Source: Patescibacteria group bacterium
GTDB taxonomy: Bacteria > Patescibacteriota > Minisyncoccia > Minisyncoccales > PEYH01
Length of the DNA: 64,000 bases
Reading direction: 5' to 3'
NCBI GenBank assembly: GCA_018900835.1
Contig: JAHIFQ010000004.1
Span: forward strand, 1-64,000
The notes under the pieces were generated by a model. The model worked only from the letters and a program-made list of their open reading frames with translations, ran no database searches and was not told where the DNA came from. Shown in pieces: positions 1,056 to 53,867 of this stretch. The position numbers and the translations under genes were made by a program. The number at the start of each line of letters is the position of its first letter. Within the stretch, counting starts at the first letter, position 1.

Positions 1056-1080
1056 GCCCCCGTAGCTCAATTGGCAGAGC
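1056..1080 (+). pseudogene. tRNA 5'-half-like fragment (acceptor 5' strand + complete D-arm), no 3' half
   Basis: GCCCCCG-TA-GCTC-AATTGGCA-GAGC fits tRNA positions 1-25 and is 72% identical to the 5' end of tRNA-Lys at 2543. It is followed by 21 nt that do not form an anticodon stem, then CTCTTAAGC (1102-1110), which is identical to the anticodon-loop core of the downstream tRNA-Lys. No T-arm or CGGGGGC acceptor 3' strand lies downstream. Confidence 0.5.
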
Positions 1081-1121
1081 AAAAATGTCTGGGACGCACT
1101 ACTCTTAAGCTTCTGTTCATA

Positions 1122-1151
1122 TTGACTTCTGCACATTAAAAATCTTATAAT
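1122..1151 (+). promoter_or_regulatory. sigma70-like promoter TTGACT-18nt-TATAAT driving the first HTH/LAGLIDADG-like gene
   Basis: TTGACT at 1122-1127 and TATAAT at 1146-1151, 38 nt upstream of the ATG at 1190. Confidence 0.4.
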
Positions 1152-1189
1152 AGATATAAGGGCACAGAAAGATATATTAGCCCGTTCGC

Positions 1190-1852
1190 ATGAAACCGAA
1201 ACCAAACGAAAAAAGAATAGTACAGTGCCTCAGGAAGCAAGGATTGAGCTATAATGAAATTCTGCAAAAGGTGCCAGTGACTAAAAGTAGCATTAGTTTT
1301 TGGTGTCAGGGTGTTGAATTAACACCTGAACAAAAAGAAAGGTTAAACAAAAAACGAGAAAGAAATTTGCAAAGGATCATAATCCTTGGACCAAAAGCCA
1401 TAGCCAAGAAAAGAAAAAAAGAAATTCACAAGATAAAAATTGAGGCAAAAAAAGAAATTCACTCCCTTGCCCCTTATGAATTTAAGATAGTCGGCGCAAT
1501 GCTATATTGGGCCGAAGGCAGTAAGAGTGGTGGCGTAGAAATTACCAACTCAGACCCAAAACTAATAAAATTTATGGTTCGCTGGCTTAAACAGGTTTGT
1601 GAGGCACAACCTGAAAGATTAAAGGCACGATTAAACATCCACGCCAATCAAAATGATAAAAAGATAAAAAAATATTGGTCTGAAATTACAAATATCCCCA
1701 TATCTCAATTTGGTAAAAGTTACATTAAACCAGAAGGCACGGGTCATAGGAAAAATATTCTAGATAATGGAGTAATTAGAATAAGATTTGGAAGCGAGGA
1801 TTTGCGCCACAGAATTATGACTTGGATTAAAGTATTATATCAATCGTTATGA
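1190..1852 (+). CDS. HTH + LAGLIDADG-like homing-endonuclease-like protein (paralog 1)
   Basis: An N-terminal helix-turn-helix (GLSYNEILQKVPV..SISFWC) is followed by G-AMLYWAEGSK (LAGLIDADG-like hxhxxEGS block) and NSDPKLIKFMVRWL. It is paralogous to the next ORF, with about 45% identity throughout. Confidence 0.4.
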   Translation: MKPKPNEKRIVQCLRKQGLSYNEILQKVPVTKSSISFWCQGVELTPEQKERLNKKRERNLQRIIILGPKAIAKKRKKEIHKIKIEAKKEIHSLAPYEFKIVGAMLYWAEGSKSGGVEITNSDPKLIKFMVRWLKQVCEAQPERLKARLNIHANQNDKKIKKYWSEITNIPISQFGKSYIKPEGTGHRKNILDNGVIRIRFGSEDLRHRIMTWIKVLYQSL

Positions 1853-2499
1853 AAAAATTATGGCAACTAAGAGAAAATGCTATAAAGCTAAGGAGGTTAG
1901 GTTGGGCTTATTCTGAAATTCAGAAGAAAGTGCCTGTTCACAAAATTACACTTAGCAAATGGTGCCGAGATATTGAACTAACCTCTCGACAAATTAAATC
2001 CCATGGAGGGAGGTATGCTAATCGTCTGAAAGGCGCAAAAGCCAATTGCCTTAAAAGGCAAAAAGAAATAATAAGAATTCAGAAAAAGGCAGAGAACGAA
2101 ATTCATATTCTTACTCCTTATGAACTTAAGATAGCTGGCGCAGCCCTATATTGGGGCGAAGGAAATAAATCTCATGGCTTGGCGTTCAGTAATTCTGATC
2201 CTGAATTAGTGAAATTTATGATGAAGTGGTTTCAAGAAACTTGCGAAGTGCCAAACAAAAAAATAAGAGCGTATCTTTATCTGCATACTGGACAAAATGA
2301 GAAAAAAATGCAAAAATACTGGTCGAGAGTAACAAATATCCCCTTAAATCAATTTAATAAAACTATTTTAAAAAAGGAGGGTTCGGCTAGTCGTAAATAT
2401 AGTCAAGACAAATATAAGGGCACAATAAAGATTCAAGTTCTAAATGAAAATTTAAAGCATAGAATACTTTCCTGGATTGAACAATTTAATTTTACTTGA
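1849..2499 (+). CDS. HTH + LAGLIDADG-like homing-endonuclease-like protein (paralog 2)
   Basis: Same architecture as the preceding ORF (GAALYWGEGNKS, NSDPELVKFMMKWF). Its start overlaps the stop of ORF1 by 4 nt (ATGA). Confidence 0.4.
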   Translation: MKKLWQLRENAIKLRRLGWAYSEIQKKVPVHKITLSKWCRDIELTSRQIKSHGGRYANRLKGAKANCLKRQKEIIRIQKKAENEIHILTPYELKIAGAALYWGEGNKSHGLAFSNSDPELVKFMMKWFQETCEVPNKKIRAYLYLHTGQNEKKMQKYWSRVTNIPLNQFNKTILKKEGSASRKYSQDKYKGTIKIQVLNENLKHRILSWIEQFNFT

Positions 2500-2542
2500 G
2501 GGATAGTTCTTAATTGCCAGAATAATCCTGCATTTTGTAACC

Positions 2543-2615: not shown

Positions 2616-2664
2616 TATTCGCTACGCTCAAGTTAAAAATTAAAAGTTAAAAATAAAAAACAAA

Positions 2665-2692
2665 AATTACGAGACCGGGTCTCGTAATTTTC
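2665..2692 (+). terminator. Rho-independent terminator (perfect 11-bp stem ATTACGAGACC/GGTCTCGTAAT + TTTTC)
   Basis: The palindrome sits directly after the tRNA and is followed by a T-run. Confidence 0.7.
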
Positions 2693-2946: not shown

Positions 2947-2952
2947 ACAATT

Positions 2953-3960: not shown

Positions 3961-6072
3961 TTGACTAATATGAAATTTAATAAAGAAATAGGAGGCAAAA
4001 ATTTTGAAGTAGAGATAGATACTTTAGCAGAGCAGGCAAATGGTAGTATTTTTGTAAGAATGGGCGATACGCTCGTTATGGCAACTGCCACAATGTCCCC
4101 CCAAGATTTGGAGGGTCTTAATTTTTTTCCTTTGACAGTTGAGTTCCAGGAAAAATTTTACGCTACTGGAAAAATATTAGGTTCAAGATTTATGAGGAGA
4201 GAAGGCAGACCATCTGAAGAATCAATCCTTACATCCCGCCTGATTGACAGGTGTATAAGACCATTATTCCCAGATGATTTAAAAAGAGAAGTTCAAATAA
4301 TTGTAAGCTGCTATTCTTTTGACAAGGAAAACGACCCTGATATCCCTGGAGTTATGGCTGCTTCATTGGCCCTCGGGATATCTGATATTCCATGGAATGG
4401 ACCAATCGCCCCAATAAGAGTGGCGAAGGTTGATAATAACCTTATCTTAAATCCAAATTACGAAGATAGGGGCAAGGGACATTTGGAAATAATGCTAAGC
4501 GGAGTTCAACAAGGAAAGAATGCTGTAATCAATATGATTGAAGCCCAAGCAAACGAAGCAAAAGAAAACGAAATTTTTGAAGCAACTGAATTTGCTGAAA
4601 AGCATCTTGGAGAAATATTGGATTTTCAAAAAGAGATTATCGCTAAGGCAGGCAAAGAAAAAATTCAAATTGAAAAAGAATCTAATCTAGAAATAGCAGC
4701 AAAGTTAAAGGAATCGTTTTCTCAAAAATTAGAAGACGCAATGACCCAACCCTTATCACTTGAAAGCAAAAGGGCTATGCAGATTCTTGAAAACGAAATT
4801 ATTGAATTCACAAAAGAAAATTTCGGAGAGGAGAAAATAGAAATAGCCAAGAGATTCATTGAAAAGGAACTTACCGAAATTCTCCACAATCTCGTTCTTG
4901 AAAAAGGAAAAAGGCCTGATGGCAGAAAACTGGACGAAGTGCGAAAAATTGATTCTATGATTGAAATTCTGCCAAGGGCTCATGGTTCAGCTGTTTTCAT
5001 AAGGGGAACAACCAAAGCGCTATCCAGCGTTACTCTCGGTCCTCCGGGCGACCAACGGTTGATTGAGGGAATGGAAATCAGTGGAAAGCAAAGATTTATG
5101 CATCACTATAATTTCCCACCTTATTGCTCTGGAGAAGTCAAACCATTAAGAGGTCCTGGCAGAAGAGAAATAGGACACGGAATGCTTGCGGAGAAAGCTC
5201 TGCTTCCACTTATTCCCAAATTTGAAGATTTTCCCTATACTATAAGAATAGTAACAGAAATTCTTTCTTCGAATGGGTCCACTTCAATGGCTTCGGTAAG
5301 CGCTGCTTCGTTGGCATTAATGGATGCTGGAGTACCGATTAAAAATACAGCTGCAGGGATTGCGATTGGCTTGATTAAATCTGACAATGATTATCGCTTG
5401 TTAACAGACATACAGGGACCAGAGGACCATTCTGGCGATATGGACTTTAAGGTTGCTGGGACGCTTGAGGGGATTACAGCAATTCAAATGGATGTTAAAA
5501 TAAATGGTATAGATTTAAACATAATAAAAGAAGCGCTTGAAAAAGCAAAACATGCCAGAGAGCAGATAATAAAAGCTATTCACAAGACCATCGCCAAACC
5601 AAAGCCGAATCTATCTCCTTACGCTCCAAAGATTTTCAGAATTAAAATCAATCCAGAAAAAATAGGCGCTGTAATCGGAACAGGCGGAAAGGTAATCAAC
5701 GAAATTATTGATGTGTGCGGAGTGACTATTGATATAGAAGATGACGGCAATGTCTTTATCTCTGCTGAATCAGAAGAGGCAGCAAAAAAAGCCATTGACT
5801 GGGTAGAAGGACTCACTCGCGAAGTTGTTGTTGGCGAGATATTTCAGGGAAAGGTTGTAAAAATTCTTGACTTCGGCGCGTTTGTGGAGATTCTGCCAGG
5901 CAAAGACGGCTTGGTTCATATATCAGAGTTAGAACAATCCCGCGTCAACAAAGTAGATGATGTGGTGAAGCTTGGCGACATAATACCTGTAAAAGTGATT
6001 TCTGTTGACGACCAAGGAAGAATCAATCTCTCCAAAAAGCAAGCCCAAGCTCAAAAAGGAGGAAAAATATAA
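3961..6072 (+). CDS. pnp: Polyribonucleotide nucleotidyltransferase (PNPase)
   Basis: 703 aa. Two RNase PH-like cores, a KH domain (GKVINEII) and a C-terminal S1 domain (GKVVKILDFGAFVEI). Confidence 0.95.
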   Translation: MTNMKFNKEIGGKNFEVEIDTLAEQANGSIFVRMGDTLVMATATMSPQDLEGLNFFPLTVEFQEKFYATGKILGSRFMRREGRPSEESILTSRLIDRCIRPLFPDDLKREVQIIVSCYSFDKENDPDIPGVMAASLALGISDIPWNGPIAPIRVAKVDNNLILNPNYEDRGKGHLEIMLSGVQQGKNAVINMIEAQANEAKENEIFEATEFAEKHLGEILDFQKEIIAKAGKEKIQIEKESNLEIAAKLKESFSQKLEDAMTQPLSLESKRAMQILENEIIEFTKENFGEEKIEIAKRFIEKELTEILHNLVLEKGKRPDGRKLDEVRKIDSMIEILPRAHGSAVFIRGTTKALSSVTLGPPGDQRLIEGMEISGKQRFMHHYNFPPYCSGEVKPLRGPGRREIGHGMLAEKALLPLIPKFEDFPYTIRIVTEILSSNGSTSMASVSAASLALMDAGVPIKNTAAGIAIGLIKSDNDYRLLTDIQGPEDHSGDMDFKVAGTLEGITAIQMDVKINGIDLNIIKEALEKAKHAREQIIKAIHKTIAKPKPNLSPYAPKIFRIKINPEKIGAVIGTGGKVINEIIDVCGVTIDIEDDGNVFISAESEEAAKKAIDWVEGLTREVVVGEIFQGKVVKILDFGAFVEILPGKDGLVHISELEQSRVNKVDDVVKLGDIIPVKVISVDDQGRINLSKKQAQAQKGGKI

Positions 6073-6169
6073 TTTATATTGGGCACGAGATGTTATTTAC
6101 TCAAAGCCCCAAATCTCATTTAGGAAACCCGTGCCTTCTTTGTTAAAAGTTTGGTGATTTTTTATTCCC

Positions 6170-8854
6170 ATGGCAGAAACAAACCACGAAAAACTAGATA
6201 TCCCGCCTGAAGCAATCCGGACAATGAAAAAGGACTTAGCTGGCATCACTCGAGGAGAGTGGGATTTGGCTTTGGCTGAAGCGGAAATTCAAGAGTTGCT
6301 TCAACAGTTCCGCGAAAGACAAAAACAAGCAGAGGCGCAGAAGCTCATGGAACAACAAAATCTAAAACCACAAAAAGAAGAGCCAAAAGAAAAAAAGGAA
6401 GAAAAAAAGCCCGAAGAACCAGTGGAGGAAGCGCCCGAAGAACCAAAAAAGAAAGAAATAAGCGCTTCAGACCAAGAAAAAATAATTGCGGAGGAAATCA
6501 AGAAACGGGCAAAGAAAAGGGAAGAAATGGTGAATCAGAGCATGGAAAAAGAGGACTTTAAAAAAGCGCTTGAACAAGAAGAAAAAGCAGATGCCCAGAC
6601 AAAAGAAAGAACAGAGAAAGAGCTTCGTGAAAAATTGGAGCGATTGCAGGAGGCGCTTAAAGAAATCCCAAATGAAAAAATCCCTCTTGAAGAAAACCAA
6701 AGTTATTACCTCAAAGACCAAGCAAAAATAGAAAAGGACTTGGAGCCAATTTTAGAAAGCGAAAAGAAAATAGAGGAGAATATAAAATTTATTGAGGGCA
6801 TTGAAAAAACTGCGATTACTCCACGCCAAAAGAAAAAAGCGGAGCAGGAAAGACAATTAGCAGAACAAGAGAGAGAAACCATAGAAAAACAAAGGTGGGA
6901 CTATGAGCAGAAAAAATTTCAAATTGAGAAACAATTAAAAGAAATAGAATTCGGCTTCCATCAACTCGCCCAAAAAGAAGCCAAGATTAAACAGGAAATT
7001 GGCTTGGTCAATCAAGAAATAGAAAAAATTGAGAAAGCCAAAGAAAAAAGAGAAATAGAAATAAAAATCAGCCAATTAGCAAAAGAAAAGGTAGAGCATG
7101 ATGTTATTAAGGCAAAGATTTTATCGCAAAGAAAAGCAATAGAAGAAAAATTGGCAGAAGTGATAATAAGAGAACAAAAGCTGGAAAAAGAATTAAGTTA
7201 TATCCAAGAAGAAGAGCGATTAGCGAGCGAAACGGAAAAACAAAGAGTAGAGCAGGAGAGATGGAAATTGGAAAAAATGCGTTCAGGCATTGAAAAAGAA
7301 AGATGGATAGTAGAAGAAGACAAGACCAAAATCCGCCTTGAAGAAAACCGAATCAATGTAAGATATCAGAAAATATTAGAACAGGAAAATCAGTACAGAA
7401 AAAGAATCCAGGATATTAATCAGATATTAGGAATTATTGTTCCAAAAGAAGTTCTTGACCCGAGAGATAGGCCAGAACCGACTATCAAGCCACAGGAAGA
7501 GCAAATAGAAAAAGATGACTATCTAGAAGAAAAACCAGCATCCGAAAGATTAAAAGAAGATAAATCGCCGACCCCCATAAAAACAGATGAAGACCAAAAG
7601 CAAGCTCCGATAGAAGAGCCAAGCGAGAAAAAGACAGCCCCAGGGCAATTAACAGAGCAGGAACAAGCCAAGGAAGAGTTAGCAAAAATTGAGGCAAAAC
7701 AAAGAAGGGAAGAATTGCTTAAAAAATTAAGGACCGTAAGGGAAAGAGAAACCCAAAACAAGGAAAAACAACTGCTCCAAAGAATCAGGCAGGGAGCGAC
7801 TATCCCTGAACCGCCTACCGAACAACAAGGCCCGACTCCACAAATCTCATCACAACACCCGCCTTTGATGAATCTCCCTTCTGAAAGAGATGTTAAAAAA
7901 TCCAAATTAAGATTATTGCTTATTGGAATTGCTGTTGTTGTTATAATCAGCATTATCGGTTTTTGGTATTGGTATGCCAAGGTGAGAGAAAAACCAGAAG
8001 CGCCTATGCCGCCACAGATAGAAACGCCTACTCCGCCAGCAACCACAACACCTTCTAATGGAACAACAACCGAGCCACTTGTCCCATCCTCAAGCTTAAT
8101 TCCTGTAAACACAACATTTCCTTTGAAAGTATCTGAACAAACAGATGTAGCATTGCTTGTCTCGCAGATTCTTAAAAATACAATTATTGAAAAAAATGTA
8201 TTTTCAAGGATTTTAATAGAAAATACTGTTGAGAAAAAATACTTATCTGTCTCTGAAATGCTCACTGCGCTCCAACTTAATCCTCCTTCCACTCTCTACG
8301 ACCAGATAGAATCAGACGCCACATTTTTTGTTTTTCCAACTGAAAATTATTCGGTCTTTGGGTTTGTTGCCAAGAGCGCCACAGATATAAGCGATAATGA
8401 AATTATGGCGACAATGAAATCATGGGAACCGACTTTAATCACAGACAGCAGGCAGTTTGGGAGTTCTCTTGCTAAAACAAATATGGTGCCTATTGCAAAC
8501 TTTCAGGAAAACAATTATAAGAATAATGTCCTGCGGTATTTGACATTAAGCCCGGCTCCGGACTGCTTCGGCGCCTGCTATGCAGCGATAGACAGCCATC
8601 TTGTCTTTAGTACTTGCTGTAATGTAATTACTAAAATTATAGACGACAAATCTTTATCCCCAACAAACACAATCAATTCGGATAAACCGCCTTCTGTCTC
8701 TGCCCCTAAAATTATCCAAAATATTGTTTCTTGGGGTTACCATACGCCCAAAAACGCCCGCTCAATAGATACAATCGTCATCCATTCTTCATATGACGCG
8801 ATAGGAAGTGATCCATACAGTACATCGGGGGTTATCGCAGAATACAAAACATAA
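6170..8854 (+). CDS. Giant coiled-coil (K/E-rich) protein with one TM helix and the start of a C-terminal amidase_2 domain (N-terminal frame of a frameshifted gene)
   Basis: About 580 aa of E/K-rich heptad-like sequence, a TM segment LLLIGIAVVVIISIIGFWYWYA, an extracellular region, then IDTIVIHSSYD (the IVIH start of the amidase_2/PGRP fold). The ORF stops at 8852-8854 inside the domain. Confidence 0.6.
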   Translation: MAETNHEKLDIPPEAIRTMKKDLAGITRGEWDLALAEAEIQELLQQFRERQKQAEAQKLMEQQNLKPQKEEPKEKKEEKKPEEPVEEAPEEPKKKEISASDQEKIIAEEIKKRAKKREEMVNQSMEKEDFKKALEQEEKADAQTKERTEKELREKLERLQEALKEIPNEKIPLEENQSYYLKDQAKIEKDLEPILESEKKIEENIKFIEGIEKTAITPRQKKKAEQERQLAEQERETIEKQRWDYEQKKFQIEKQLKEIEFGFHQLAQKEAKIKQEIGLVNQEIEKIEKAKEKREIEIKISQLAKEKVEHDVIKAKILSQRKAIEEKLAEVIIREQKLEKELSYIQEEERLASETEKQRVEQERWKLEKMRSGIEKERWIVEEDKTKIRLEENRINVRYQKILEQENQYRKRIQDINQILGIIVPKEVLDPRDRPEPTIKPQEEQIEKDDYLEEKPASERLKEDKSPTPIKTDEDQKQAPIEEPSEKKTAPGQLTEQEQAKEELAKIEAKQRREELLKKLRTVRERETQNKEKQLLQRIRQGATIPEPPTEQQGPTPQISSQHPPLMNLPSERDVKKSKLRLLLIGIAVVVIISIIGFWYWYAKVREKPEAPMPPQIETPTPPATTTPSNGTTTEPLVPSSSLIPVNTTFPLKVSEQTDVALLVSQILKNTIIEKNVFSRILIENTVEKKYLSVSEMLTALQLNPPSTLYDQIESDATFFVFPTENYSVFGFVAKSATDISDNEIMATMKSWEPTLITDSRQFGSSLAKTNMVPIANFQENNYKNNVLRYLTLSPAPDCFGACYAAIDSHLVFSTCCNVITKIIDDKSLSPTNTINSDKPPSVSAPKIIQNIVSWGYHTPKNARSIDTIVIHSSYDAIGSDPYSTSGVIAEYKT

Positions 8855-9176
8855 CGGGGTAGCTCCGCACTATTTAATTGCCCGTAATGGGGACATATAC
8901 CAACTAGTCACCGATAAGGCCGTCGCATATCATGCAGGAAACAGTAAAATGCCTGATGGGAGAACTAACGTAAATAATTTTTCTATCGGCGTTGAGTTGA
9001 TATACGCTAAAAATGATACGCCAACGGAAGTCCAATATGATTCCCTGTCTAAATTGGTTGATTATTTGGTTGATAAATACAAGATTCCATTAAAAAATAT
9101 CGTCGGGCACGAAGACATATCTCCTGCCAATAGACAAGACGATCCTGCTAATTTTGATTGGAACAAAATTTCATAA
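8808..9176 (+). CDS. N-acetylmuramoyl-L-alanine amidase (amidase_2/PGRP) domain, C-terminal part (frame-shifted continuation of 6170..8854)
   Basis: GVAPHYLIARNGDIYQLV...AYHAG...SIGVEL...IVGHEDI...DPANFDW are the conserved amidase_2 blocks. This reading frame opens at 8805, overlapping the upstream ORF by 47 nt. Confidence 0.6.
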   Translation: MIHTVHRGLSQNTKHNGVAPHYLIARNGDIYQLVTDKAVAYHAGNSKMPDGRTNVNNFSIGVELIYAKNDTPTEVQYDSLSKLVDYLVDKYKIPLKNIVGHEDISPANRQDDPANFDWNKIS

Positions 9177-9215: not shown

Positions 9216-9593
9216 ATGAAAAAAGAGTTTATAGAAAAGCAAAGGGTGCGGTTAGAAGAAAACAAAAAAGCTCTCCAAAAGGAGCTAAGTCTTTTTGCTG
9301 AAAAAGATGAAAAAATAAAAGGCAACTGGAAGTCCTCTTTTCCTGATTTTGACAGTTCTGAAACCGGAGGAGGAAAACTGGAAATAGCCCAAGATGAAGT
9401 GGAGGAATATTTGAACCGTCTTCCAGTGGAGCATTCTATGGAAATCAAACTTCAAAACATAGATTTAGCGTTGGCAAAAGTAAAGAAAGGCACTTACGCA
9501 AAATGCAATAAATGCGGAAAAAGAATTTCCATGGACCGGCTTGAGGCCTGCCCAGAAGCGCAATTTTGCGTGGACTGCAAAGGCAAGGCGTAA
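9216..9593 (+). CDS. DksA/TraR-family C4 zinc-finger protein
   Basis: C-terminal CNKCGKRISMDRLEACPEAQFCVDC (CxxC-17-CxxC) after a coiled-coil. Confidence 0.7.
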   Translation: MKKEFIEKQRVRLEENKKALQKELSLFAEKDEKIKGNWKSSFPDFDSSETGGGKLEIAQDEVEEYLNRLPVEHSMEIKLQNIDLALAKVKKGTYAKCNKCGKRISMDRLEACPEAQFCVDCKGKA

Positions 9594-9609
9594 AAACAAA
9601 TATATCTCC

Positions 9610-9645
9610 CAAACACAAAAACCCAGCGATGGGTTTTTGTGTTTG
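9610..9645 (+). repeat. Palindromic hairpin element copy 1 (16-bp perfect stem CAAACACAAAAACCCA/TGGGTTTTTGTGTTTG, loop GCGA)
   Basis: Member of a 5-copy family with the core AAAACCC-N4-5-GGGTTTT (copies at 9610, 10448, 11305, 12124 and 13225). It acts as a terminator-like cassette boundary. Confidence 0.6.
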
Positions 9646-9671
9646 AAAAAAATAATATACAATGATTATAT

Positions 9672-10346
9672 ATGTCTACTAATATAAGAAATTATATATT
9701 CGTTGACGAATCAGGAGACCCAGGCAAGATTCATAAGATTGATTCCTCTGGGAATAAAATTTATACTGGCGCGAGTTTATTTTATATTCTCTCCGCAGTT
9801 TGTTTGAATTCAAGAGAATTATTTTTGCTAGAAAATAAGATTTTAGAAATTAAAAATAAACATGGATTTAGGAACGAAATAAAAAGCACCATTATTCCTT
9901 TAATTCTATACAAAGACCTCCTTAAAATGATTAACAAATTAGATATAAAAATATTTTATAGATTAATAGATAAAAGGAAATATAAGGGAACATTTGCCGT
10001 TAAGGGTGATAAAAGGCTACACAATGTCTTTGATGAATATAATCTTGCAAAATTAGTCTGTTTTGCTGTTAAGAAGTGTGATATGACCGGAGTAGAAGTA
10101 GTTATAGATAGAACCGACAGAAGGCTACTGGATGGTAACTTCGAGAATTTCAATGATTATCTCAAGGGCAAAATAAATACTAAAACAATCGAAAGGATAA
10201 AACATGTCACTCATGTTAATTCGGAATATGTAAATGCAATGCAGTTATCTGATTTAGTTAGTGGTGCAATAAAAGATAGTTTTACCAAAAAGAATCCATA
10301 TCTTAAAAAGATAATGGAAAAAAGGTTGTTGAAAAAGATATATTAG
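9672..10346 (+). CDS. DUF3800-family protein
   Basis: The N-terminal YIFVDESGDPG matches the DUF3800 y-i-DESG signature. The protein is about 220 aa. Confidence 0.55.
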   Translation: MSTNIRNYIFVDESGDPGKIHKIDSSGNKIYTGASLFYILSAVCLNSRELFLLENKILEIKNKHGFRNEIKSTIIPLILYKDLLKMINKLDIKIFYRLIDKRKYKGTFAVKGDKRLHNVFDEYNLAKLVCFAVKKCDMTGVEVVIDRTDRRLLDGNFENFNDYLKGKINTKTIERIKHVTHVNSEYVNAMQLSDLVSGAIKDSFTKKNPYLKKIMEKRLLKKIY

Positions 10347-10447
10347 GTTAAATAAAAAAAGAAGCGGGCGCCCAGACCTGGGACACGCTTCAATATGATA
10401 ATAGCAATCTCAAAATAATTGTCAAGTCCCCACGCAAAATACCACAC

Positions 10448-10468
10448 AAAAACCCCTGCTGGGTTTTT
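10448..10468 (+). repeat. Palindromic hairpin element copy 2 (AAAAACCC-CTGCT-GGGTTTTT)
   Basis: Same family. It sits 50 nt upstream of comM 5' fragment 1. Confidence 0.55.
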
Positions 10469-10490
10469 AAATTTGGAGAATTAAGATAAT

Positions 10491-10685
10491 ATGAAACAAG
10501 ATAAATCAATAAACAACAATATGTCTTCCAAAATATTCTCCGGAGCAGTTGTCGGTCTGGAAACCCAAATCATTGAGGTTGAATCAGATATTTCTTATGG
10601 ATTAAGGAGTTTTGAGATTGTGGGCTTGCCCGACAAAGCGGTAGAGGAGTCGACTGTCATCACAAAACATTCAAAGTGTTCTTGA
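10491..10685 (+). pseudogene. comM/yifB 5'-end fragment, copy 1 (displaced N-terminal 44 codons + unrelated tail)
   Basis: From the internal MSSKIFSGAVVGLETQIIEVESDISYGLRSFEIVGLPDKAVEES it is about 92% nt-identical to comM 13296-13427, then diverges. It carries an extra MKQDKSINNN leader. Confidence 0.75.
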
Positions 10686-10821
10686 AAACAAAACTCCTCC
10701 CGGTAGAAGAAATAATCGGGCATAGGGTTGAAGTAGAATTGATTGAAAAATAAACTTAACGCAACTTTGACAATATGCGTCTTTTTTGTCAAAATGGAAC
10801 AAATATTAATAAACTGTATAT

Positions 10822-11259
10822 ATGCCAAAAATACCCACTGGCAAATTAGCATCAATGCACATCTCTTATTCCTTTTTTCTTTATATGTTAGGGACGCAGA
10901 TTATTTTTCCCTCCTGGCCATATTTATTAAAGCTCATATTTACCATATTTATTATTCTATTATCAGTGTCTGGCTCTTTATGGTATTTCAAAAAGAGAGG
11001 ATATGTCATCGAAGAAAAACAAAAATTTCTTCGCTTGTCGGCAATTTGGTTTTTCTTGATAAATTTTAGTGTTCCAGTAATGTATACTATTTTGATAGTT
11101 TGGATAATGAGGACAGGCGCAAGTGCCACTGACCTTGCCAAAACATTTGCAATTTTCTTAGTGAGTTCAGGAATAACCACCCTTTTATTTTATTGGTTTA
11201 CTAAAAAACTCATGCCCAGAGTAGAAAGCGGTAAGAGCTTATTAAATTGGAAAAAATAA
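10822..11259 (+). CDS. 4-TM membrane protein, hypothetical (cargo between comM fragments)
   Basis: Four hydrophobic helices and no recognised motifs. Confidence 0.35.
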   Translation: MPKIPTGKLASMHISYSFFLYMLGTQIIFPSWPYLLKLIFTIFIILLSVSGSLWYFKKRGYVIEEKQKFLRLSAIWFFLINFSVPVMYTILIVWIMRTGASATDLAKTFAIFLVSSGITTLLFYWFTKKLMPRVESGKSLLNWKK

Positions 11260-11304: not shown

Positions 11305-11328
11305 TGTCAACAACCAAAAACCCATCAC
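11305..11328 (+). repeat. Palindromic hairpin element copy 3 (CAAAAACCCA-TCAC-TGGGTTTTTG)
   Basis: Same family. Its 5' flank TTCTCTCTC..CAACAACC is shared with copy 5. Confidence 0.55.
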
Positions 11329-11383
11329 TGGGTTTTTGTGTTTAAGAAAGGCGGTTTCTCTTTTTTTTGTTATAGCGACTTTT

Positions 11384-11668
11384 TTAGCTAACAAATTCTA
11401 TTTTAATCCTTTTGTTAAATACTGAGGCAATTCTCTGAAGATTATCAGTAGTAAAATTCTGCCGCCCTGCTTCCATTCTAGCAATAACGCTTTGAGTTGT
11501 GCCAATCTTTTTAGCTAATCCCTGTTGTGATAAGTGTTTCTTCGCTCTCAATTGGACAATCTTATAAGCAACTTCAAGACGATGACATTCTTGTTTATAT
11601 CCCTTGTTGAAATTCTTATCTTTCATCTTGGCCCTAAAATGTTTTTCGTAATTAGTTAATTTAGTCAT
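11384..11668 (-). CDS. XRE-family HTH antitoxin (HigA-like)
   Basis: HTH motif LSQQGLAKKIGTTQSVIARMEAG. It lies downstream of, and overlaps by 8 nt, the RelE/HigB-like toxin gene. Confidence 0.6.
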   Translation of the reverse strand: MTKLTNYEKHFRAKMKDKNFNKGYKQECHRLEVAYKIVQLRAKKHLSQQGLAKKIGTTQSVIARMEAGRQNFTTDNLQRIASVFNKRIKIEFVS

Positions 11669-12029
11669 ATTTATTATTATTTATTAAAAAATCTCTATAA
11701 TTTTTTTCGGCTTTAATAATTTCTTTTTTTGGTGTTTTGCTTGTTTTCTTTAAAAACGCGTGTAAAAGAATAATTTTTTTGCTAACAAATGTAAAATAAA
11801 ATATTCTATGATGATTTTTGGAAAAACCAACTCTCAACTCTCTAATTTTCCCTTTAATGTGTTTTGAATACGGTTCATCCAAATATCCCTTCTTATCTTT
11901 TAATAATTCTAAATATGTAAAAACTTTTACCTGTTCTTTTTTAGACAGTTTATCAATGTATTCTTTCACGACTTCCTTTCCTTTAGAATCAATATAGTAA
12001 TAGATCCTATGGTCCCCTAAATATGTCAT
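11661..12029 (-). CDS. RelE/ParE-superfamily toxin, HigB/Gp49-like
   Basis: Blocks EPYSKHIKGKIRELR and RIFYF...IILLHAF.KK..KTP match the Gp49/HigB family. The toxin-first order matches HigBA. Confidence 0.6.
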   Translation of the reverse strand: MTYLGDHRIYYYIDSKGKEVVKEYIDKLSKKEQVKVFTYLELLKDKKGYLDEPYSKHIKGKIRELRVGFSKNHHRIFYFTFVSKKIILLHAFLKKTSKTPKKEIIKAEKNYRDFLINNNKYD

Positions 12030-12123: not shown

Positions 12124-12143
12124 CAAAACCCATTTCTGGGTTT
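12124..12143 (+). repeat. Palindromic hairpin element copy 4 (AAAACCCA-TTTC-TGGGTTTT)
   Basis: Same family. It sits 50 nt upstream of comM 5' fragment 2. Confidence 0.55.
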
Positions 12144-12167
12144 TTAAATTTGGAGAATTAAGATAAT

Positions 12168-12383
12168 ATGAAACAAGATAAATCAATAAACAACAATATG
12201 TCTTCCAAAATATTCTCCGGAGCTGTTGTCGGTTTGGAAACCCAAATCATTGAGGTTGAATCAGATATTTCTTATGGATTAAGGAGTTTTGAGATTGTGG
12301 GCTTGCCCGACAAAGCGGTAGAGGAATCAACTGTCGTCACAAAACATTCAAAGTGTTCTCTAAAACACAACTTCTTCCTATAG
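12168..12383 (+). pseudogene. comM/yifB 5'-end fragment, copy 2
   Basis: Same as copy 1, about 95% identical to it across roughly 320 bp including the 5' UTR. It diverges from comM after GCGGTAGAGGAATC. Confidence 0.75.
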
Positions 12384-12599
12384 CGGAAATAATCGGGCAT
12401 AAGGATGAAGCAAAATTGATTGAAAAATAGAATTGACACCACTTTTATAGGACTGAAGTAAAATTAATTGGAAAATAGACCTGACACCATTTTTCTATTT
12501 CATCATTTTCTCATCACCGTTTTTTTCATTTGATGACTGGCAGAAACAAACATGATATACTATAAAAAATTAGAGGAATAAAATTAATAAAATATATTT

Positions 12600-13100
12600 A
12601 TGAAAAATAAAACATTATTGATCGCGATAGTCGCCATTGTAGTATTGGCAATTTTAATTTTTTTAATACTTCTTATTAAGAATAAAACAGCTCCCGTAAT
12701 GTTCCCGACGGACGAGAAAGCTTGCGACGAAATACAGGGACAGAAATTGAAAGATTATTGTTATTTGGGTGCCGCTCAAGCCAAGCAAGACATGTCTATT
12801 TGTGAGATGATACAGGAGCAGTGGGTAAAAAATGACTGTTATTTAAATGTAGCTCAAGCCAAGCAAGATATCTCAATTTGTGAGAATATACAGGATCAAG
12901 AGAGGAAAGATGACTGTTATTTAAATGTAGCTCAAGTCAAGGAAGACATATCTCTTTGTGAGGGAATGCATGGACAGAACAAAAAAGATCTTTGTTATTT
13001 GCGCATTGCTCGAGCCAAGCAAGATATATCTATTTGTGAGATGATACAGGAGCAGAAGATAAAAGAAAATCTTTGTTATAGATACATAAATCCCCAATAA
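12600..13100 (+). CDS. Signal-anchored protein with four ~31-aa Cys-containing repeats (DCYLNVAQAKQDISICE..Q..K)
   Basis: An N-terminal hydrophobic anchor is followed by 4 tandem repeats, each with a conserved CYL...A.AKQD.S.CE pattern. Confidence 0.5.
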   Translation: MKNKTLLIAIVAIVVLAILIFLILLIKNKTAPVMFPTDEKACDEIQGQKLKDYCYLGAAQAKQDMSICEMIQEQWVKNDCYLNVAQAKQDISICENIQDQERKDDCYLNVAQVKEDISLCEGMHGQNKKDLCYLRIARAKQDISICEMIQEQKIKENLCYRYINPQ

Positions 13101-13224: not shown

Positions 13225-13245
13225 AAAACCCATCACTGGGTTTTT
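13225..13245 (+). repeat. Palindromic hairpin element copy 5 (AAAACCCA-TCAC-TGGGTTTT)
   Basis: Same family. It sits 50 nt upstream of intact comM. Confidence 0.55.
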
Positions 13246-13295
13246 GTGTTTGAAGAAAGATACATAATAGAATATTATGAATTATAATAAATATT

Positions 13296-33768: not shown

Positions 33769-34902
33769 ATGAAGATAATAATACTTAAAGAAAAATTGGC
33801 TAAAGGATTAAGTATGGTTGAGAAAATAACTGGAAGAAACTTTACTCTTCCGATTTTAAATAATGTTTTGATTTCTGCTGAAGATAACTCATTGAAATTA
33901 TCAACCACTGACCTTGAATTAGGGATTAGCTATTGGGGACTTGCGAAGGTAGAAGAAAAAGGAGAAATCACTATCCCAGTGAAAACCCTTTCTAGTTTTG
34001 TCTCTCTTATTGGAGAAGAGAAAGTGACAATAGAGAGCAAGGAAAAAACACTTTATTTAAAGGGAGAAAATTATAAGACACAGATAAAGGGGCTTGAAGC
34101 AAAGGATTTTCCAATTATCCCGGAAGTTGTTTCAGATAAATGGATTGAATTTGACGCAACTACATTTTGTAAAGGGATAATGCTTGTAATGGATTTTTGC
34201 GCACTCACTCAAGTAAGGCCTGAACTCTCTGGCTTATATTTTGTTTTTCAAAAAAATTCGGCTAAAATCGTGGCTACCGACAGTTTTCGTTTAGCGGAAA
34301 AAAGCATTGCTTTAGATGGGGCTACTCAAGGAATAGACGGTCCACAGTCATTTATTCTTCCAAGAAATGCTGCCAGGGAATTAGTCAATATTTTTTCAGA
34401 GCACAATGGAAAAATCAAGTTTTATTTATCTCCGAGTCAAATTATGGTTGAAAGCTATGTTGACGAAACCAAAAACCCACAAGCGCGCTTAGTTTCCCGT
34501 TTGATTGAAGGTGAATACCCTGATTATGAAGCAGTGATTCCAAAAGAGTTTAAAACACGGCTCACTCTTTCCAGGGAAGAATTCTCAAACCAGATTAAAA
34601 TTGCCAGTTTATTCAGCGGAAGAACGAATGAAGTAAAATTGGAAATAAGCCCTAAAAAAGGAAATGTTTTGATATCTTCGCAAAGCGTTGATTTGGGGGA
34701 AACAGAATCCAAAATGGCGATAGACGCAAGCGGAGATGATGTGGAGATAAGCTTTAATTACAAGTTTTTGTCTGAAGGATTGAATCAAATAAAATCAGAA
34801 AAAATCGTTCTTGAGCTTAATGGTCAAGACGGACCTGGTGTTTTAAAATCCAGTGACGATTCAACTTATATTTATGTAATAATGCCGATTAAGGCATCTT
34901 GA
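33769..34902 (+). CDS. dnaN: DNA polymerase III beta sliding clamp
   Basis: 377 aa with a three-domain clamp layout and the N-terminal MKIIILKEKL...NFTLPILNNVLI. Confidence 0.9.
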   Translation: MKIIILKEKLAKGLSMVEKITGRNFTLPILNNVLISAEDNSLKLSTTDLELGISYWGLAKVEEKGEITIPVKTLSSFVSLIGEEKVTIESKEKTLYLKGENYKTQIKGLEAKDFPIIPEVVSDKWIEFDATTFCKGIMLVMDFCALTQVRPELSGLYFVFQKNSAKIVATDSFRLAEKSIALDGATQGIDGPQSFILPRNAARELVNIFSEHNGKIKFYLSPSQIMVESYVDETKNPQARLVSRLIEGEYPDYEAVIPKEFKTRLTLSREEFSNQIKIASLFSGRTNEVKLEISPKKGNVLISSQSVDLGETESKMAIDASGDDVEISFNYKFLSEGLNQIKSEKIVLELNGQDGPGVLKSSDDSTYIYVIMPIKAS

Positions 34903-50470: not shown

Positions 50471-50812
50471 TTGAAAAGAGACGAGGAATGGGGTAATATT
50501 AAAGCAGATATGGAAAAAATACCCCAATTTTTGCAGAAATATTTTTGGGATGTGGAATTTTTAACCCTGGACATAAAAAAGCACTCACAATTTGTTATTG
50601 AGAGGATTTTAGAATATGGAGACAAAAAATCAATAAAATGGATGGAAGATAATTTTCCTTCAGAAGAAATTAAAAATACCCTTTCTATTTCCAAAAACCT
50701 TTCGCAAAAATCAGCCAATTTTTGGCAGCTTATTTTTGATTTAGATAAGAATAAAATTTTATGCTTGAACAAATCATTTCAAAAAAAACACAAAGCAATC
50801 TGGAGATATTAA
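50471..50812 (+). CDS. Hypothetical protein overlapping the AbiEii-like gene start; candidate cognate antitoxin
   Basis: 113 aa with no HTH recognised. The assignment rests on the 52-nt overlap with the downstream NTase gene. Confidence 0.25.
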   Translation: MKRDEEWGNIKADMEKIPQFLQKYFWDVEFLTLDIKKHSQFVIERILEYGDKKSIKWMEDNFPSEEIKNTLSISKNLSQKSANFWQLIFDLDKNKILCLNKSFQKKHKAIWRY

Positions 50813-51378
50813 AAAAATCAGGCCTGATTGCAAATTTTTATCTTGTTGGCGGCACAGGGTTGGCTTTATATTTAAAGCATCGCATTTCTGTTGATTTGGA
50901 TTTTTTCAGCAAAAAAGAGTTCAACAGCCAATCAATGATTCAGAAGATTAAAAAGTTAGGTAAATTTTCAATCGCAAAAGAATCAGAAAATACTTTGACA
51001 GGAGTTTTTAATGACACAAAAATCGCTTTTTTGACATACGATTATCCGCTTCTTTTTCCGTTGAAAAAAATTGGCAATATTAATGTTGCTGACATAAAAG
51101 ATATCGCTTGTATGAAAATTTCTGCGATTTCTTCCCGTGGAAGCAAGAAGGACTTTATTGATTTATACTTTATTTGCCAGCAGGGCATTTCATTAAAACA
51201 GGCATTAGTATTGTTTGAAAAGAAATATAAGAGCATTGATTATAATATGGTGCATATTTTGAAAAGTTTGGTCTTTTTTGATGATGCTCACAATGACCCT
51301 ATGCCAAAAATGTTAGTTCCCGTTATGTGGGAACAGGTTAAGAGATTTTTTCAAGAAAAAGTAAAAACGAGTCAATGA
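50761..51378 (+). CDS. AbiEii/AbiGii-family nucleotidyltransferase (type IV TA toxin-like)
   Basis: NFYLVGGTGLALYLKHRISVDLDFF matches the GG.AL....HR.S.D.D signature of the AbiEii NTase family. Confidence 0.55.
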   Translation: MLEQIISKKTQSNLEILKKSGLIANFYLVGGTGLALYLKHRISVDLDFFSKKEFNSQSMIQKIKKLGKFSIAKESENTLTGVFNDTKIAFLTYDYPLLFPLKKIGNINVADIKDIACMKISAISSRGSKKDFIDLYFICQQGISLKQALVLFEKKYKSIDYNMVHILKSLVFFDDAHNDPMPKMLVPVMWEQVKRFFQEKVKTSQ

Positions 51379-51500
51379 TTTCTTTTATCAGGGGTAAAAT
51401 AAAAGCAAAAGATGAAGAATTTGTTATTGTTGAAAACAATGATATTGGTTTTAAGGTTTTTGTTTCCCCAAAGACCTTGGAAAAATTAAATATAGGAGAG
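51375..51500 (+). pseudogene. ruvA 5'-end fragment (first 42 codons), 100% identical to the start of intact ruvA at 53298
   Basis: 128-bp perfect direct repeat 51373-51500 = 53296-53423. The ORF 51375..51575 reads through into unrelated GC-rich sequence. Confidence 0.8.
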
Positions 51501-51689
51501 GTCGGGTTCGACGCGTACAGGGTCGGCTATGCCTATCAGCACTGTGGGTCGGCGTCCGGCTTTCTCCCGCAGTAGCGCTTTGTACTCTTGAGACTTTTGA
51601 ACCCTTTTGGGGGTTTGATTCCTTGTCTCCGGAGCGAAAAACATGAACGAGGGCTGGCCACACATGGTGGACAGCCCTCCTCCTCTTTT
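51501..51689 (+). ncRNA. GC-rich (~58% versus ~35% window) structured-RNA-like segment ending in an intrinsic terminator; identity unknown
   Basis: Starts GTCGGGTTCGACGCG (resembling the tmRNA 5' GGAUUCGACGGG motif). Contains GUCCGGCUUUCUCC and the hairpin GGGCUG-GCCACACAUGGUGGA-CAGCCC followed by UCCUCCUCUUUU. Confidence 0.3.
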
Positions 51690-51957
51690 AAAATATGTAT
51701 AGATTTGATATACTGATAAATGAGTATAGGCTAATGTATAGCAGTTTACGGATTGCTATCGCCGAACTCTCTCTTCAATAAAGAAAGAGAAAAAACAACC
51801 AGAATCTTGACGACTACGGTTTTCAAGAGCGAGTTGTCTTGAGGAGATACTGCTTGCTTCTGTCTATGGTAGATGTCCTGAGTTTATTAATGGGCTGCTA
51901 CCGAATAAAATACAGGAAGAAGTAGAGAAATTAGGGACGTGTAGCATTTTACTTAAA

Positions 51958-53004
51958 TTGTTAAAAATAAATATGAATAATTTTAAAAATTATTTAATAG
52001 CACAAATCAAAAAATTAACTAGCAATAAAAAAAATGTATGGATAACTGGCATTGTTATATTAATTTTAATTATTTCAATAGGAGCATGGAAAGTACTGAG
52101 CAATAAAACGCCTCTTGATATAAACTCGTCAATTGAAGAAGTATCCTTGGGCACGGATAAGACTGAACACTCTCAAGGCGAAGAAAAAGTAACCTTGGTC
52201 ACAGATAAGACAGAATATGCTCAAGGTGAAAGCGTGAAAATTGATATTTCTAATTTAACAACGAAAAATATTGAATATAGTCCAAGTTTCTCGCCATGTT
52301 GCGGCGGTGTTTTTATAGATAAAAAGAATAGTGAAAATGTATGGAAACGTATTTATACTTCAATTGCTGAGCCACGAATAGGACCATCTTCGTCAGAAGA
52401 AAGAATGAATGAGGGCTGGCTCTTGCTAGAACCAAAGATACAAATACAAATAGAATCGGACATGTTGGTACAAGTCGAAGGATCAAGAATTCAAGCTCCA
52501 GCTGGCATTTATCGAATTGGATTTAGATGGTATTATTCGTCTTCAGAAGACGGCAATGTGTCTTATTCTAACGAGTTTATGATTGAAGGAGATGAGAAAA
52601 TGAGTTTTAACAAACAACCAACTGTTTCAACAAATAAATTAGAGTATGTACAAGGCGAAGAAATTATAATAAAAATACACAATCAAGGTACGCCTATTTT
52701 TTATCAGCCCAATCTTTGTCAACCAGAGTGTTGCTTTGCTCAAAAAACTATAAATGGAAGATTTAGAGTAGTAGATATATCACCATGCCTATCACCACCC
52801 CAAGCTCCACCTGGCGTAGACTTCGAAAGGATTCCTAGCAAGATAGAATCTGGGGAAGAAATTATTGAAATATTAGAAACAAATCCAGAATGGGAAGATG
52901 AAATAGAAGTTGGCACCTATAGACTCTTTTTTTATTATTCACGTAACGAAGAAATGCAAGATAGCCATGCTGTATACTCTAACGAGTTTACAATTAGTCA
53001 ATAG
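51958..53004 (+). CDS. Signal-anchored protein with three internal ~90-aa repeats (..KTEY.QGE..KI.I.N.....YSNEF.I)
   Basis: An N-terminal TM (VWITGIVILILIISIGAW). The repeats end in YSNEFMIEG and YSNEFTISQ, each with conserved CC and QPEC pairs. Confidence 0.45.
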   Translation: MLKINMNNFKNYLIAQIKKLTSNKKNVWITGIVILILIISIGAWKVLSNKTPLDINSSIEEVSLGTDKTEHSQGEEKVTLVTDKTEYAQGESVKIDISNLTTKNIEYSPSFSPCCGGVFIDKKNSENVWKRIYTSIAEPRIGPSSSEERMNEGWLLLEPKIQIQIESDMLVQVEGSRIQAPAGIYRIGFRWYYSSSEDGNVSYSNEFMIEGDEKMSFNKQPTVSTNKLEYVQGEEIIIKIHNQGTPIFYQPNLCQPECCFAQKTINGRFRVVDISPCLSPPQAPPGVDFERIPSKIESGEEIIEILETNPEWEDEIEVGTYRLFFYYSRNEEMQDSHAVYSNEFTISQ

Positions 53005-53297
53005 TTATAGCAAATTAGGCAAATTAGAGACGTGTACCATTTTACCCATTTTACTGAATGCGTTCAACAAGGGGAGCTGTTCCAAAAACCCTCTATTCAT
53101 GAGGGTTTTTGAATCATTTGGCGTAGGATGTTAGAACTTTTTCAATTGGTCCATCCCGCGCAAAACATTATGTCGCCTCCTTGTGTGCGGTTTTTTTACA
53201 TTGAGCGTGATATAAAGTCAAATTTTGAAAATAATTGTTTGAAAATGATAGCGAGTGGGTAGTTGAAAACAGGCGGGGAATAGGGTAATATTAAACA

Positions 53298-53867
53298 ATG
53301 ATTTCTTTTATCAGGGGTAAAATAAAAGCAAAAGATGAAGAATTTGTTATTGTTGAAAACAATGATATTGGTTTTAAGGTTTTTGTTTCCCCAAAGACCT
53401 TGGAAAAATTAAATATAGGAGAGATAGTAGAGTTTTTTATTTTTTTCGCTATTCGCAATGAAAAGCCGGAATTATACGGGCTTTTGACGCAGGAAGAATT
53501 AAGGGTCTTTGAAATTATAGAAAAAGTTTCAGGAATCGGGCCCAAAGGAGCAATGCTTATCGCCTCATTGGGAACATTTGACGAGCTTAAAGAAGCCATA
53601 GAAATCCAGGATTTTGGTTTTTTCTCCAAAATTAAAGGAATCGGGAAAAAGAAAATTCAGAAGATTATCTTGGAATTAGGGGGCAGCATAAAAAGAATCG
53701 AGGAAATAAAAGATAAAAGTCCGCAACAAGACGAGGCATTCAGGGGCTTGGTAGCATTAGGGTTTTCTCAAAAAGAAGCGAAAGAGGCGTTATCAAATGT
53801 GCCAATGGAAGTCAAAGACACGAGTCAAAGAGTCCAACAGGCGTTAAGACAATTCACAAAGAAATGA
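53298..53867 (+). CDS. ruvA: Holliday junction DNA helicase RuvA
   Basis: OB-fold N-terminus, HhH motifs (GIGPKGA, IKGIGKK) and a C-terminal domain III. Confidence 0.9.
   Translation: MISFIRGKIKAKDEEFVIVENNDIGFKVFVSPKTLEKLNIGEIVEFFIFFAIRNEKPELYGLLTQEELRVFEIIEKVSGIGPKGAMLIASLGTFDELKEAIEIQDFGFFSKIKGIGKKKIQKIILELGGSIKRIEEIKDKSPQQDEAFRGLVALGFSQKEAKEALSNVPMEVKDTSQRVQQALRQFTKK

Follow-up and report, generated by a model that had tools for sequence, protein, structure and literature searches.

Displaced 5' ends at the tRNA-Lys, comM and ruvA loci of a Patescibacteria genome: probable recombination scars and a clade-wide cassette array at comM

The window analysed here is a 64-kb stretch of DNA from a Patescibacteria group bacterium (GCA_018900835.1, contig JAHIFQ010000004.1, positions 1 to 64,000), the sequence of which is also carried by the Patescibacteria metagenome-assembled genome GCA_018898995.1 and by equivalent ENA contigs. 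Three genes in it, namely tRNA-Lys, comM and ruvA, show the same topology, as a preliminary description of the stretch had observed: a displaced 5' fragment of the gene is followed by inserted DNA and then by the gene itself, which is restored by a second copy of its 5' end behind a promoter-like leader. That description favoured either a single element family or dedicated 5'-targeting mechanism, or else Campbell-type homologous recombination, and it is the latter that is near to what the data favour. We propose that the three loci, rather than being copies of one mobile element, are probably scars that arose independently when recombination put accessory DNA immediately upstream of a conserved gene. 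Their shared topology is a common outcome, not a common agent, and the only unusual case of the three is comM, where a cassette array is conserved across the whole clade.

Several observations speak against a single family. The three inserts have no sequence in common. The ruvA insert, seen in this genome only, begins inside the truncated variable repeat (VR) of a diversity-generating retroelement (DGR), and a joint at that point is illegitimate and arbitrary. At comM the scaffold has diverged between genomes in the manner of core genes (82% versus 83% identity), suggesting that it is inherited and not recently mobile, and at tRNA-Lys the synteny of the inserted gene pair extends to relatives with as little as 57% identity. 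In one respect the protein-gene inserts do resemble integrative elements, namely in being flanked by direct repeats derived from their targets, which amount to 128 nucleotides (nt) at 100% identity at ruvA and ~130 nt at 94-95% at comM. In agreement with the lack of such ORFs noted before, Pfam searches detect no recombinase, integrase or transposase domain in the cargo open reading frames (ORFs) of any of the three inserts; among the window ORFs searched, both cargo and flanking genes, Pfam, NCBIfam, PADLOC and PHROGs likewise recover no recombinase. The only genes seen within the window that bear on DNA uptake or recombination are comM, ruvA and ruvB. For comparison we used related loci (numbered L003, L005 and so on), many of which were found via RuvA or ComM homologues or via a metagenome scan with the conserved comM tail described below. 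Self-comparison of 14 such loci found gene-start repeats essentially only at comM, which argues against a genome-wide 5'-targeting activity.

The 5' end of comM (nt 1 to ~133) is indeed present three times in the window, with partial copies at 10520-10648 and 12197-12330 matching the start of the intact gene (13295-13428) at 94.6% and 94.8%, respectively. The two partial copies share a longer unit that includes their flanks (10459-10768 versus 12136-12445; 310 nt at 92.6%). The array, which lies on the forward strand unless otherwise stated, is bordered on the left by a dksA/traR-type zinc-finger gene (9216-9593), followed by a terminator-like hairpin, AAACCCAnnnnTGGGTTT (9605-9650), of which more copies are found at 10447-10469, 11317-11336, 12125-12144 and 13225-13244. 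Within the window this hairpin motif occurs at the comM locus only, and it bounds cassettes in L008, L010 and L015. Next come a DUF3800 gene (9672-10346; Pfam E-value 2e-12, PADLOC candidate PDC-M04A), comM fragment A (10521-10648, codons 1 to ~43, in the ORF 10491-10685), the conserved tail A that follows the junction at comM nt 133 (10649-10768), and a gene for a 145 amino acid (aa) membrane protein with no family match (10822-11259). A reverse-strand toxin-antitoxin cassette (11384-12029), comprising an HTH_3 antitoxin (11384-11668) and a Gp49/HigB-like toxin (11661-12029), precedes fragment B (12198-12330; ORF 12168-12383), tail B (12331-12445) and a gene for a 166-aa protein with 78-nt tandem repeats (12600-13100). 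Intact comM (13296-14843), coding for a YifB-type Mg-chelatase-like AAA ATPase (Mg_chelatase, E-value 6e-91), stands behind a leader that contains a promoter-like site (TTGAAG-17-TATTAT, 13250-13278) and is of a type common to L008 and L010. Rfam searches of the array gave no match. The repeats in the 166-aa protein gene number four (12722-13064), are 69-80% identical and encode a Cys-containing 26-aa repeat placed after a signal or transmembrane segment. Leader type 1 carries a short upstream ORF, which reads MKQDKSINNN in frame with the window fragments (10491-10520 and 12168-12197) and MKQSKTIK-stop ahead of the intact comM in L010 and L015; judging from its sequence, it may represent a regulatory leader peptide.

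Comparable arrays are present across the clade. ComM relatives at 90, 89 and 83% identity all have a variable array of 3.5-5.5 kb between the dksA-like gene and comM, and a variable array of toxin-antitoxin, defence-like and small genes occupies this position in all relatives examined, even at 57% ComM identity. Each genome contains one to three comM 5' fragments, which are arranged in tandem and all co-oriented with comM, and the cargo includes toxin-antitoxin pairs, NYN, DUF3800, SocA-like and membrane proteins. Some 12 distinct arrays showed no recombinase when that of the window was searched with Pfam and PADLOC and the translations of the others were read by eye only. The aligned fragments end alike at ...GARGARTC, corresponding to comM nt ~130-133, and are then followed by the conserved tail RACTGTCNTSRCAAAACATTCAARGTRTTYYTRAAAAC... 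This combination of fragment end and tail is found in most copies of the window, L008, L010, L015 and L016, the exception being the copy L008_c, in which the duplication ends at comM nt 95 without a tail. The metagenome scan for the tail yielded 16 contigs, and the fragment end together with the tail is present in 14/16 of the contigs holding the motif; one of these contigs, L031, is a likely chance match inside an unrelated ORF. Among GTDB genomes the tail occurs in only 3 species representatives. In distant Patescibacteria (57-60% ComM identity) the fragment begins 3 nt after the dksA stop codon and is succeeded by the tail, 1.5-2.5 kb of cargo, a new leader and intact comM. Given that the fragment abuts dksA in these genomes, the ancestral state is best explained as a dksA-comM operon, and the displaced copy is then the native 5' end, the first ~130 nt of the live gene having come with the insert. 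This bears out the earlier suggestion that the insert supplies a new leader and N-terminus.

The pattern of divergence within the arrays indicates that their scaffold has been inherited. The block running from HigA and HigB through the hairpin, leader and fragment B to the tail is 82.4% identical between the window and L010, and is thus as diverged as comM (82.6%) and pnp (83%); the toxin-antitoxin cassette block is likewise orthologous in L010 (82.4%) and L015 (85%). Fragment B is closer to the comM of its own genome (94%) than to its positional orthologue (84%), and mismatches between fragments and resident comM fall at third codon positions in 8/8 (fragment A), 13/14, 13/15 and 14/15 cases. 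Together these sequence comparisons appear to indicate that functional genes served as donors, through gene conversion or repeated replacement of alleles. Signs of decay are also seen: the ATG has been lost in the fragments of L015 and L016, L008_a contains a 60-nt insertion and the second tail of L032 is degenerate. Leader types have been shuffled between positions as well as between genomes. A mismatch gradient toward the 5' end did not separate the models considered below, since comM is unevenly conserved over nt 1-133.

At the ruvA locus the repeat covers ruvA nt -2 to 126, beginning 2 nt ahead of the ATG, and its two copies (51373-51500 and 53296-53423) are identical at 128/128 positions, as previously described. 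All features of this locus are on the forward strand. A promoter copy, P' (50471-50503), adjoins rpsT and is 88% identical to 53263-53295; it precedes a DUF6922 and AbiEii toxin-antitoxin pair (50510-51378) whose stop codon overlaps the ruvA ATG, a junction that is the same in L003 and L005. The first ruvA 5' copy (51373-51500) belongs to a chimeric ORF (51375-51575), in which the fragment runs in frame into the final 24 codons of a DGR target gene, the ORF closing with the stop codon of the latter. The remnant of this target gene (51499-51921) comprises the 3' two-thirds of the VR, its own stop codon (51573-51575) and the downstream region, and is 81-91% identical to positions 6849-7304 of L005 (VR and downstream region). 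It is followed by ORF348 (51973-53004), a 343-348 aa protein with two internal repeats and no family match; by a segment (53181-53295) that includes the promoter P (53263-53291), resembles the sequence preceding DUF6922 and is homologous to the L005 region between the DGR reverse transcriptase (RT) and DUF6922; and by the second ruvA 5' copy (53296-53423), which is the start of intact ruvA (53298-53867). ORF348 stands in the place of the template repeat (TR), Avd and RT. It is flanked by a 25-nt direct repeat, AAATTAGRGACGTGTASCATTTTAC (51928-51952 and 53021-53045; 0 chance matches expected), which brackets it exactly and may mark the boundary of a cassette or act as a regulatory site. A motif related to this repeat, AAATAGGGACGTTTACCATTTTT, occurs in tandem in the comM array of another genome (L015 ~6640-6690 / L021 2081-2125). 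The GC-rich segment after the ruvA fragment had been considered as a known RNA, since it folds well (z = -3.2); it has no Rfam match and proved to be the DGR VR remnant.

Relatives show this interval in three different states. In L044 (RuvA 80%) the order is rpsT, P, ruvA, with the junction between P and caATG being as in the right-hand copy of the window. In L003 and L004 (RuvA 87%) it is rpsT, P, DUF6922, AbiEii, ruvA, with the toxin stop overlapping the ruvA ATG exactly as at window position 51375, and in L005 and L006 (RuvA 85%) it is rpsT, P', DGR, P, DUF6922, AbiEii, ruvA, with the DGR complete. The L005 DGR (5801-9129) has a 300-aa target gene, a VR (~6808-6926), a TR (~7363-7480), bAvd and an RT (RVT_1); the mismatches from TR to VR are at adenines in 15/15 cases, and a copy of the ruvA-operon promoter stands on either side of the element (5801-5833 and 9097-9129). 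Thus, window positions 51499-51575, which are homologous to the VR of a complete DGR, tie the ruvA insert, and this insert only, to these retroelements. The window copy is nevertheless a dead remnant that keeps only the truncated VR and downstream region, lacking the RT, the accessory protein Avd, the TR and hence the TR/VR pair by which a DGR is defined. The joint between ruvA nt 126 and the VR has a 2-nt microhomology (AG) and lies at no recognisable site. From its sequence, the ruvA insert thus does not appear to be an element with defined ends, its left end being a truncated gene.

At the tRNA-Lys locus, a relic 5' half comprising the acceptor and D arm (1056-1081, forward strand) is not called as a tRNA. 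It matches the canonical tRNA-Lys(CTT) of L008 and L041 at 25/26 positions, and an anticodon-loop-like octamer, CTCTTAAG, lies 20 nt beyond it; these two features identify it as a real tRNA-Lys relic. Its match to the window's own tRNA-Lys (2543-2615) reaches no more than ~20/26, and that to the tRNA-Lys(TTT) in the same slot of L041 is 24/26; because L041 holds an intact tRNA there, a decayed upstream tRNA is an alternative source of the relic, and the origin suggested by its sequence is not fully certain. Downstream, and likewise on the forward strand, are a promoter-like site (TTGACT-18-TATAAT, 1122-1151), identified only by its 11/12 consensus match, and the pair of ORFs that it precedes: ORF1 (1190-1852; 220 aa), with an N-terminal helix-turn-helix (HTH) and a single LAGLIDADG-like domain, and its paralogue ORF2 (1849-2499; 216 aa, 43% identity). 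The intact tRNA-Lys(CTT) that follows (2543-2615; 64 bits) has a divergent 5' half, and its T arm and 3' flank match L008. In L008 the ORF pair is absent and the tRNA-Lys(CTT) is canonical. In L011, L038 and L041 the pair occupies the same slot upstream of tRNA-Lys(CTT)-rpsO; in the window, L011 and L038 the adjacent tRNA combines a divergent 5' half with a T arm and 3' flank that are the same, and a canonical 5' relic lies upstream of the pair in the window and L038 (the upstream region of L011 was not recovered). The arrangement is therefore old. Patescibacteria and Omnitrophota contain >460 homologues of the HTH and LAGLIDADG-like family, frequently located on very short contigs, and in this clade the family forms tandem paralogue pairs adjoining tRNA-Lys; no Pfam or NCBIfam model exists for it.

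The preliminary description had proposed looking in related genomes for sites lacking both the fragment and the inserted DNA. Such empty sites exist for ruvA, both in the direct rpsT-P-ruvA order of L044 and in the order of L003, in which only the DUF6922-AbiEii pair intervenes between P and ruvA, and for tRNA-Lys in L008, which lacks the ORF pair. For comM the ancestral order, with the fragment directly after dksA, is preserved in distant relatives; an empty comM site was found in no relative examined.

A further scar, absent from the preliminary description, is the mirror image of the flagged pattern. The tRNA-Arg(CCG) gene (60291-60363) has a copy of its 3' half (43 nt, 88%) 2.6 kb downstream at 62966-63008, indicating that such scars are not specific to 5' ends. 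Along with the duplicated promoter flanking the DGR in L005, it shows the same process acting on other gene ends. Between tRNA-Arg and the copy of its 3' half lie an 82-aa coiled-coil ORF and full-length typA/bipA on the minus strand, and the region after tRNA-Arg differs in L003 and L005. The relatively GC-rich intergenic stretch at 60740-60915 contains a tRNA-like GGTTCGAAC...CCGGAGCCA segment and a terminal hairpin with a T-run; it has no Rfam or ARAGORN match, and an Rfam search of the tRNA-Arg region was also empty.

In light of these observations, we infer that at each locus the incoming DNA brought its own copy of the gene 5' end while the older 5' end stayed behind. The comM locus would be an old N-terminal displacement array, in which the native dksA-comM unit was split at nt ~130-133 by DNA carrying a new leader and comM nt 1-133; the recurrent joint between nt 133 and the tail would then have arisen in one event and been propagated. 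Because the displaced fragments stay homologous to the start of the live comM, double crossovers could insert, stack, swap and delete units without a dedicated enzyme, with the left crossover falling within nt 1-133 and the right one within the gene body, and with DNA taken up from relatives among the substrates. Gene conversion or allele replacement would keep the fragments gene-like. The ruvA arrangement may be the product of one recent illegitimate join between two rpsT-ruvA haplotypes, P-DUF6922-AbiEii-ruvA and DGR-P-ruvA, brought about by homology-facilitated illegitimate recombination or unequal exchange. Through this join, ruvA nt 126 would have come to abut the middle of the DGR VR, with the 5' duplication as a by-product. 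One homology-facilitated illegitimate event suffices here, whereas an intragenomic route takes three steps, including the precise loss of the toxin pair. The tRNA-Lys locus would record an old insertion of the LAGLIDADG-like gene pair together with a variant tRNA 5' half, for which nuclease-triggered, one-sided repair is a reasonable candidate origin.

Several points weigh against this explanation, most of them concerning the comM tail. Its first ~45 nt are ~85-90% conserved across lineages, which is more than the adjacent comM coding DNA, and the junction position is identical in lineages at just 57% ComM identity. A passive relic should decay faster, and the conservation would thus be in keeping with recognition of the site by a recombinase or with selection on a product. 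Before the invariant CAAAAC, substitutions in the tail fit frame 0 (S-T-V-[IVL]-T-K); after it, they favour every third base in the -1 frame (15:6:4), which reads K-T-F-K-V-F-L-K-T-x-L-L-P. This switch, seen in the window (10649-10700 and 12331-12380) and in the tails of L019-L037, is suggestive of either a -1 frameshift or a leftover of coding sequence. No parent gene for the tail emerged from tblastn on all loci, and phmmer against 1.84 billion representatives gave fragments only. At ruvA, the DGR-P-ruvA haplotype without the toxin pair, which the one-step model requires, was not observed among the relatives. The ~130-nt length common to both protein-gene fragments is left unexplained, though with two cases it may be coincidence, and natural transformation in this organism is assumed.

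The features of the tail lend some weight to a different view of comM, which amounts to the model of the preliminary description confined to this locus. The cassettes would be non-autonomous and moved by a recombinase encoded elsewhere (tyrosine, Xer-like or integron-like), with core comM nt ~126-133 (GARGAATC) recombining with the conserved tail as the attachment arm, and each integration displacing and resupplying the 5' end. The junction is fixed, and the start of the tail nearly invariant, over lineages ranging from 57% to 100% ComM identity, and, unlike the tail, the fragment on the left side of the junction is lineage-specific. In L020 and L029 the resident comM uses AGC for Ser45 and the fragment TCR, which places GAATCRACTG on the tail, that is the cassette, side of the junction. 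The cargo of toxin-antitoxin pairs and small orphan genes also resembles that of chromosomal integrons. Yet neither the ~12 arrays (the window by Pfam, the rest by eye) nor the searched window ORFs yielded a recombinase; cassettes in common between genomes are no more similar than core genes; close assemblies show no cassette polymorphism; and the tail is absent from viral contigs. The ending of L008_c at nt 95 indicates that 5' duplications also arise at this locus without the putative site, and there is no conserved right-end site beyond the terminator-like hairpins of one sub-clade. On balance we regard a recombinase acting in trans as unlikely. We consider it rather improbable that the array is an undescribed Patescibacteria cassette system in a broader sense, in which a trans-acting recombinase or nuclease-triggered copying would insert integrase-less cassettes at nt ~130-133, the tail serving as the cassette-side site and the gene being rebuilt from the cassette-borne 5' end. 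Such a system would be an integron-like platform inside a recombination gene, and its fragment and tail might in addition give rise to a small frameshifted protein that acts on ComM.

The latter notion can also be held by itself: the fragment and tail would form a functional small gene, encoding the ComM N-terminus (44 aa) and a tail peptide, possibly through a -1 slip at CAAAAC. Selection would then retain the unit, for example because it modulates ComM and hence DNA uptake and recombination, and this would explain both its conservation and its repetition. The fragment frames are intact, their differences from comM are almost all synonymous, and the frame switch in the tail substitutions is as expected of such a gene. 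However, gene conversion from the live comM also accounts for the synonymous pattern, and the periodicity is modest (estimated p ~0.02, from non-independent sequences). No start codon is present in the L015 and L016 fragments, the tail stands without any fragment in L023-L025, and the peptide beyond LLP is variable in length and sequence. Moreover, CAAAAC is not accompanied by a canonical slippery heptamer or a conserved stimulatory structure, the tail showing no conserved RNA structure (alifold -1.2 kcal/mol). We accordingly give a functional small gene little credence. That the duplications are assembly artefacts, produced by chimeric joins of co-occurring strains at shared sequence, was raised in the preliminary description and is extremely improbable. 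In its favour, the sequences were assembled from metagenomes of strain-variable populations, and the ruvA repeat is perfect over 128 nt. Against this, the k141_ contig names imply an assembly k-mer of 141, which exceeds the repeat, so that each ruvA copy would have been bridged together with its unique flanks. The same structure recurs in three deposited assemblies, the novel joint between ruvA nt 126 and the VR cannot come from graph traversal alone, and the comM architecture is found again in dozens of independent contigs from different projects. Recombination scars that arose independently at the three loci thus remain our preferred explanation.

With regard to known systems, the closest likeness is to the displacement, or 'orphan', arrays of Rhs, contact-dependent inhibition (CDI) and type VI secretion system (T6SS) effector-immunity genes, the proposed origin of which is homology-facilitated illegitimate recombination (Kirchberger et al. 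2017, PMC5361080); displacement arrays are also treated by Jackson et al. 2009, as cited there. In both cases recombination is anchored in a conserved stretch of the gene, incoming modules shift the earlier ones outward, the displaced modules keep the conserved piece, no integrase is involved and arrays once formed spread by ordinary homologous recombination. The features of such arrays are seen here in the tandem, co-oriented anchor fragments at comM and in the joints of little homology at ruvA nt 126 and the VR (2 nt) and in L008_c (nt 95). In the Rhs, CDI and T6SS arrays, however, it is 3' ends (toxin tips with immunity genes) that are displaced downstream, whereas here the 5' ends of a housekeeping gene and their leaders are displaced upstream; furthermore, the comM cargo is unrelated to the gene, and one junction with a 45-nt tail is reused clade-wide. 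By analogy, the comM array would be the 5' counterpart of these displacement arrays.

Integration at gene 5' ends is already known from the SXT/R391 integrative and conjugative elements in prfC, as summarised in PMC2791158 (citing Hochhut and Waldor 1999). On that summary, an element likewise sits at the 5' end of a conserved gene that is still functional, but it has its own tyrosine integrase and short attL/attR repeats, in contrast to the lack of an integrase at the three loci considered here. Islands targeted to tRNA genes, including degenerate remnants with partial tRNAs (tycheposon preprint, 10.1101/2020.12.28.424599), similarly show tandem accretion at one site, older insertions pushed outward and partial gene copies as scars. 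Their scars are made by element-encoded integrases, whereas here neither an integrase nor a remnant of one is seen and it is the 5' part of the gene that is replaced. Sedentary chromosomal integrons resemble the comM array in that small cassettes, with toxin-antitoxin and orphan genes abundant among them, are arrayed with hairpin-forming repeats in between. The comM array differs in having no intI, attI or recognisable attC, in being anchored in coding sequence, and in that many of its cassettes apparently have their own promoters and occur in both orientations. No integron integrase adjoins the array in the window, L008, L010 or L015, and its hairpins resemble intrinsic terminators and are confined to one sub-clade.

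Two other features of the window may be recorded. The genes dnaA and dnaN (32128-34902) lie mid-window, and all three loci are within ~30 kb either side of this probable replication origin. A VirB4/TraG-like ATPase gene (22259-25858; 1199 aa) in a conserved type IV secretion cluster contains an intein with a LAGLIDADG_3 endonuclease; its orthologues are of 1263 aa in L008 and L016 and of 599 aa in L010, where the protein is intein-free, and hence the intein is polymorphic.

These results caution that a shared topology alone is no basis for inferring a mobile-element family, and it is the conserved junction and tail at comM that merit further study. The fragment and tail also provide a marker with which to find such hotspots in metagenomes. 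Should the tail turn out to serve as a recombination site or to code for a product, this would indicate a new mechanism of cassette capture inside a gene that promotes recombination during transformation. If the three loci are recombination scars as we propose, the comM array would widen the concept of displacement arrays from the 3' tips of toxins to the 5' end of a core gene, and the ultra-small, integrase-poor Patescibacteria would gain and shuffle toxin-antitoxin and defence genes via recombination anchored in housekeeping genes, leaving scars at gene starts.

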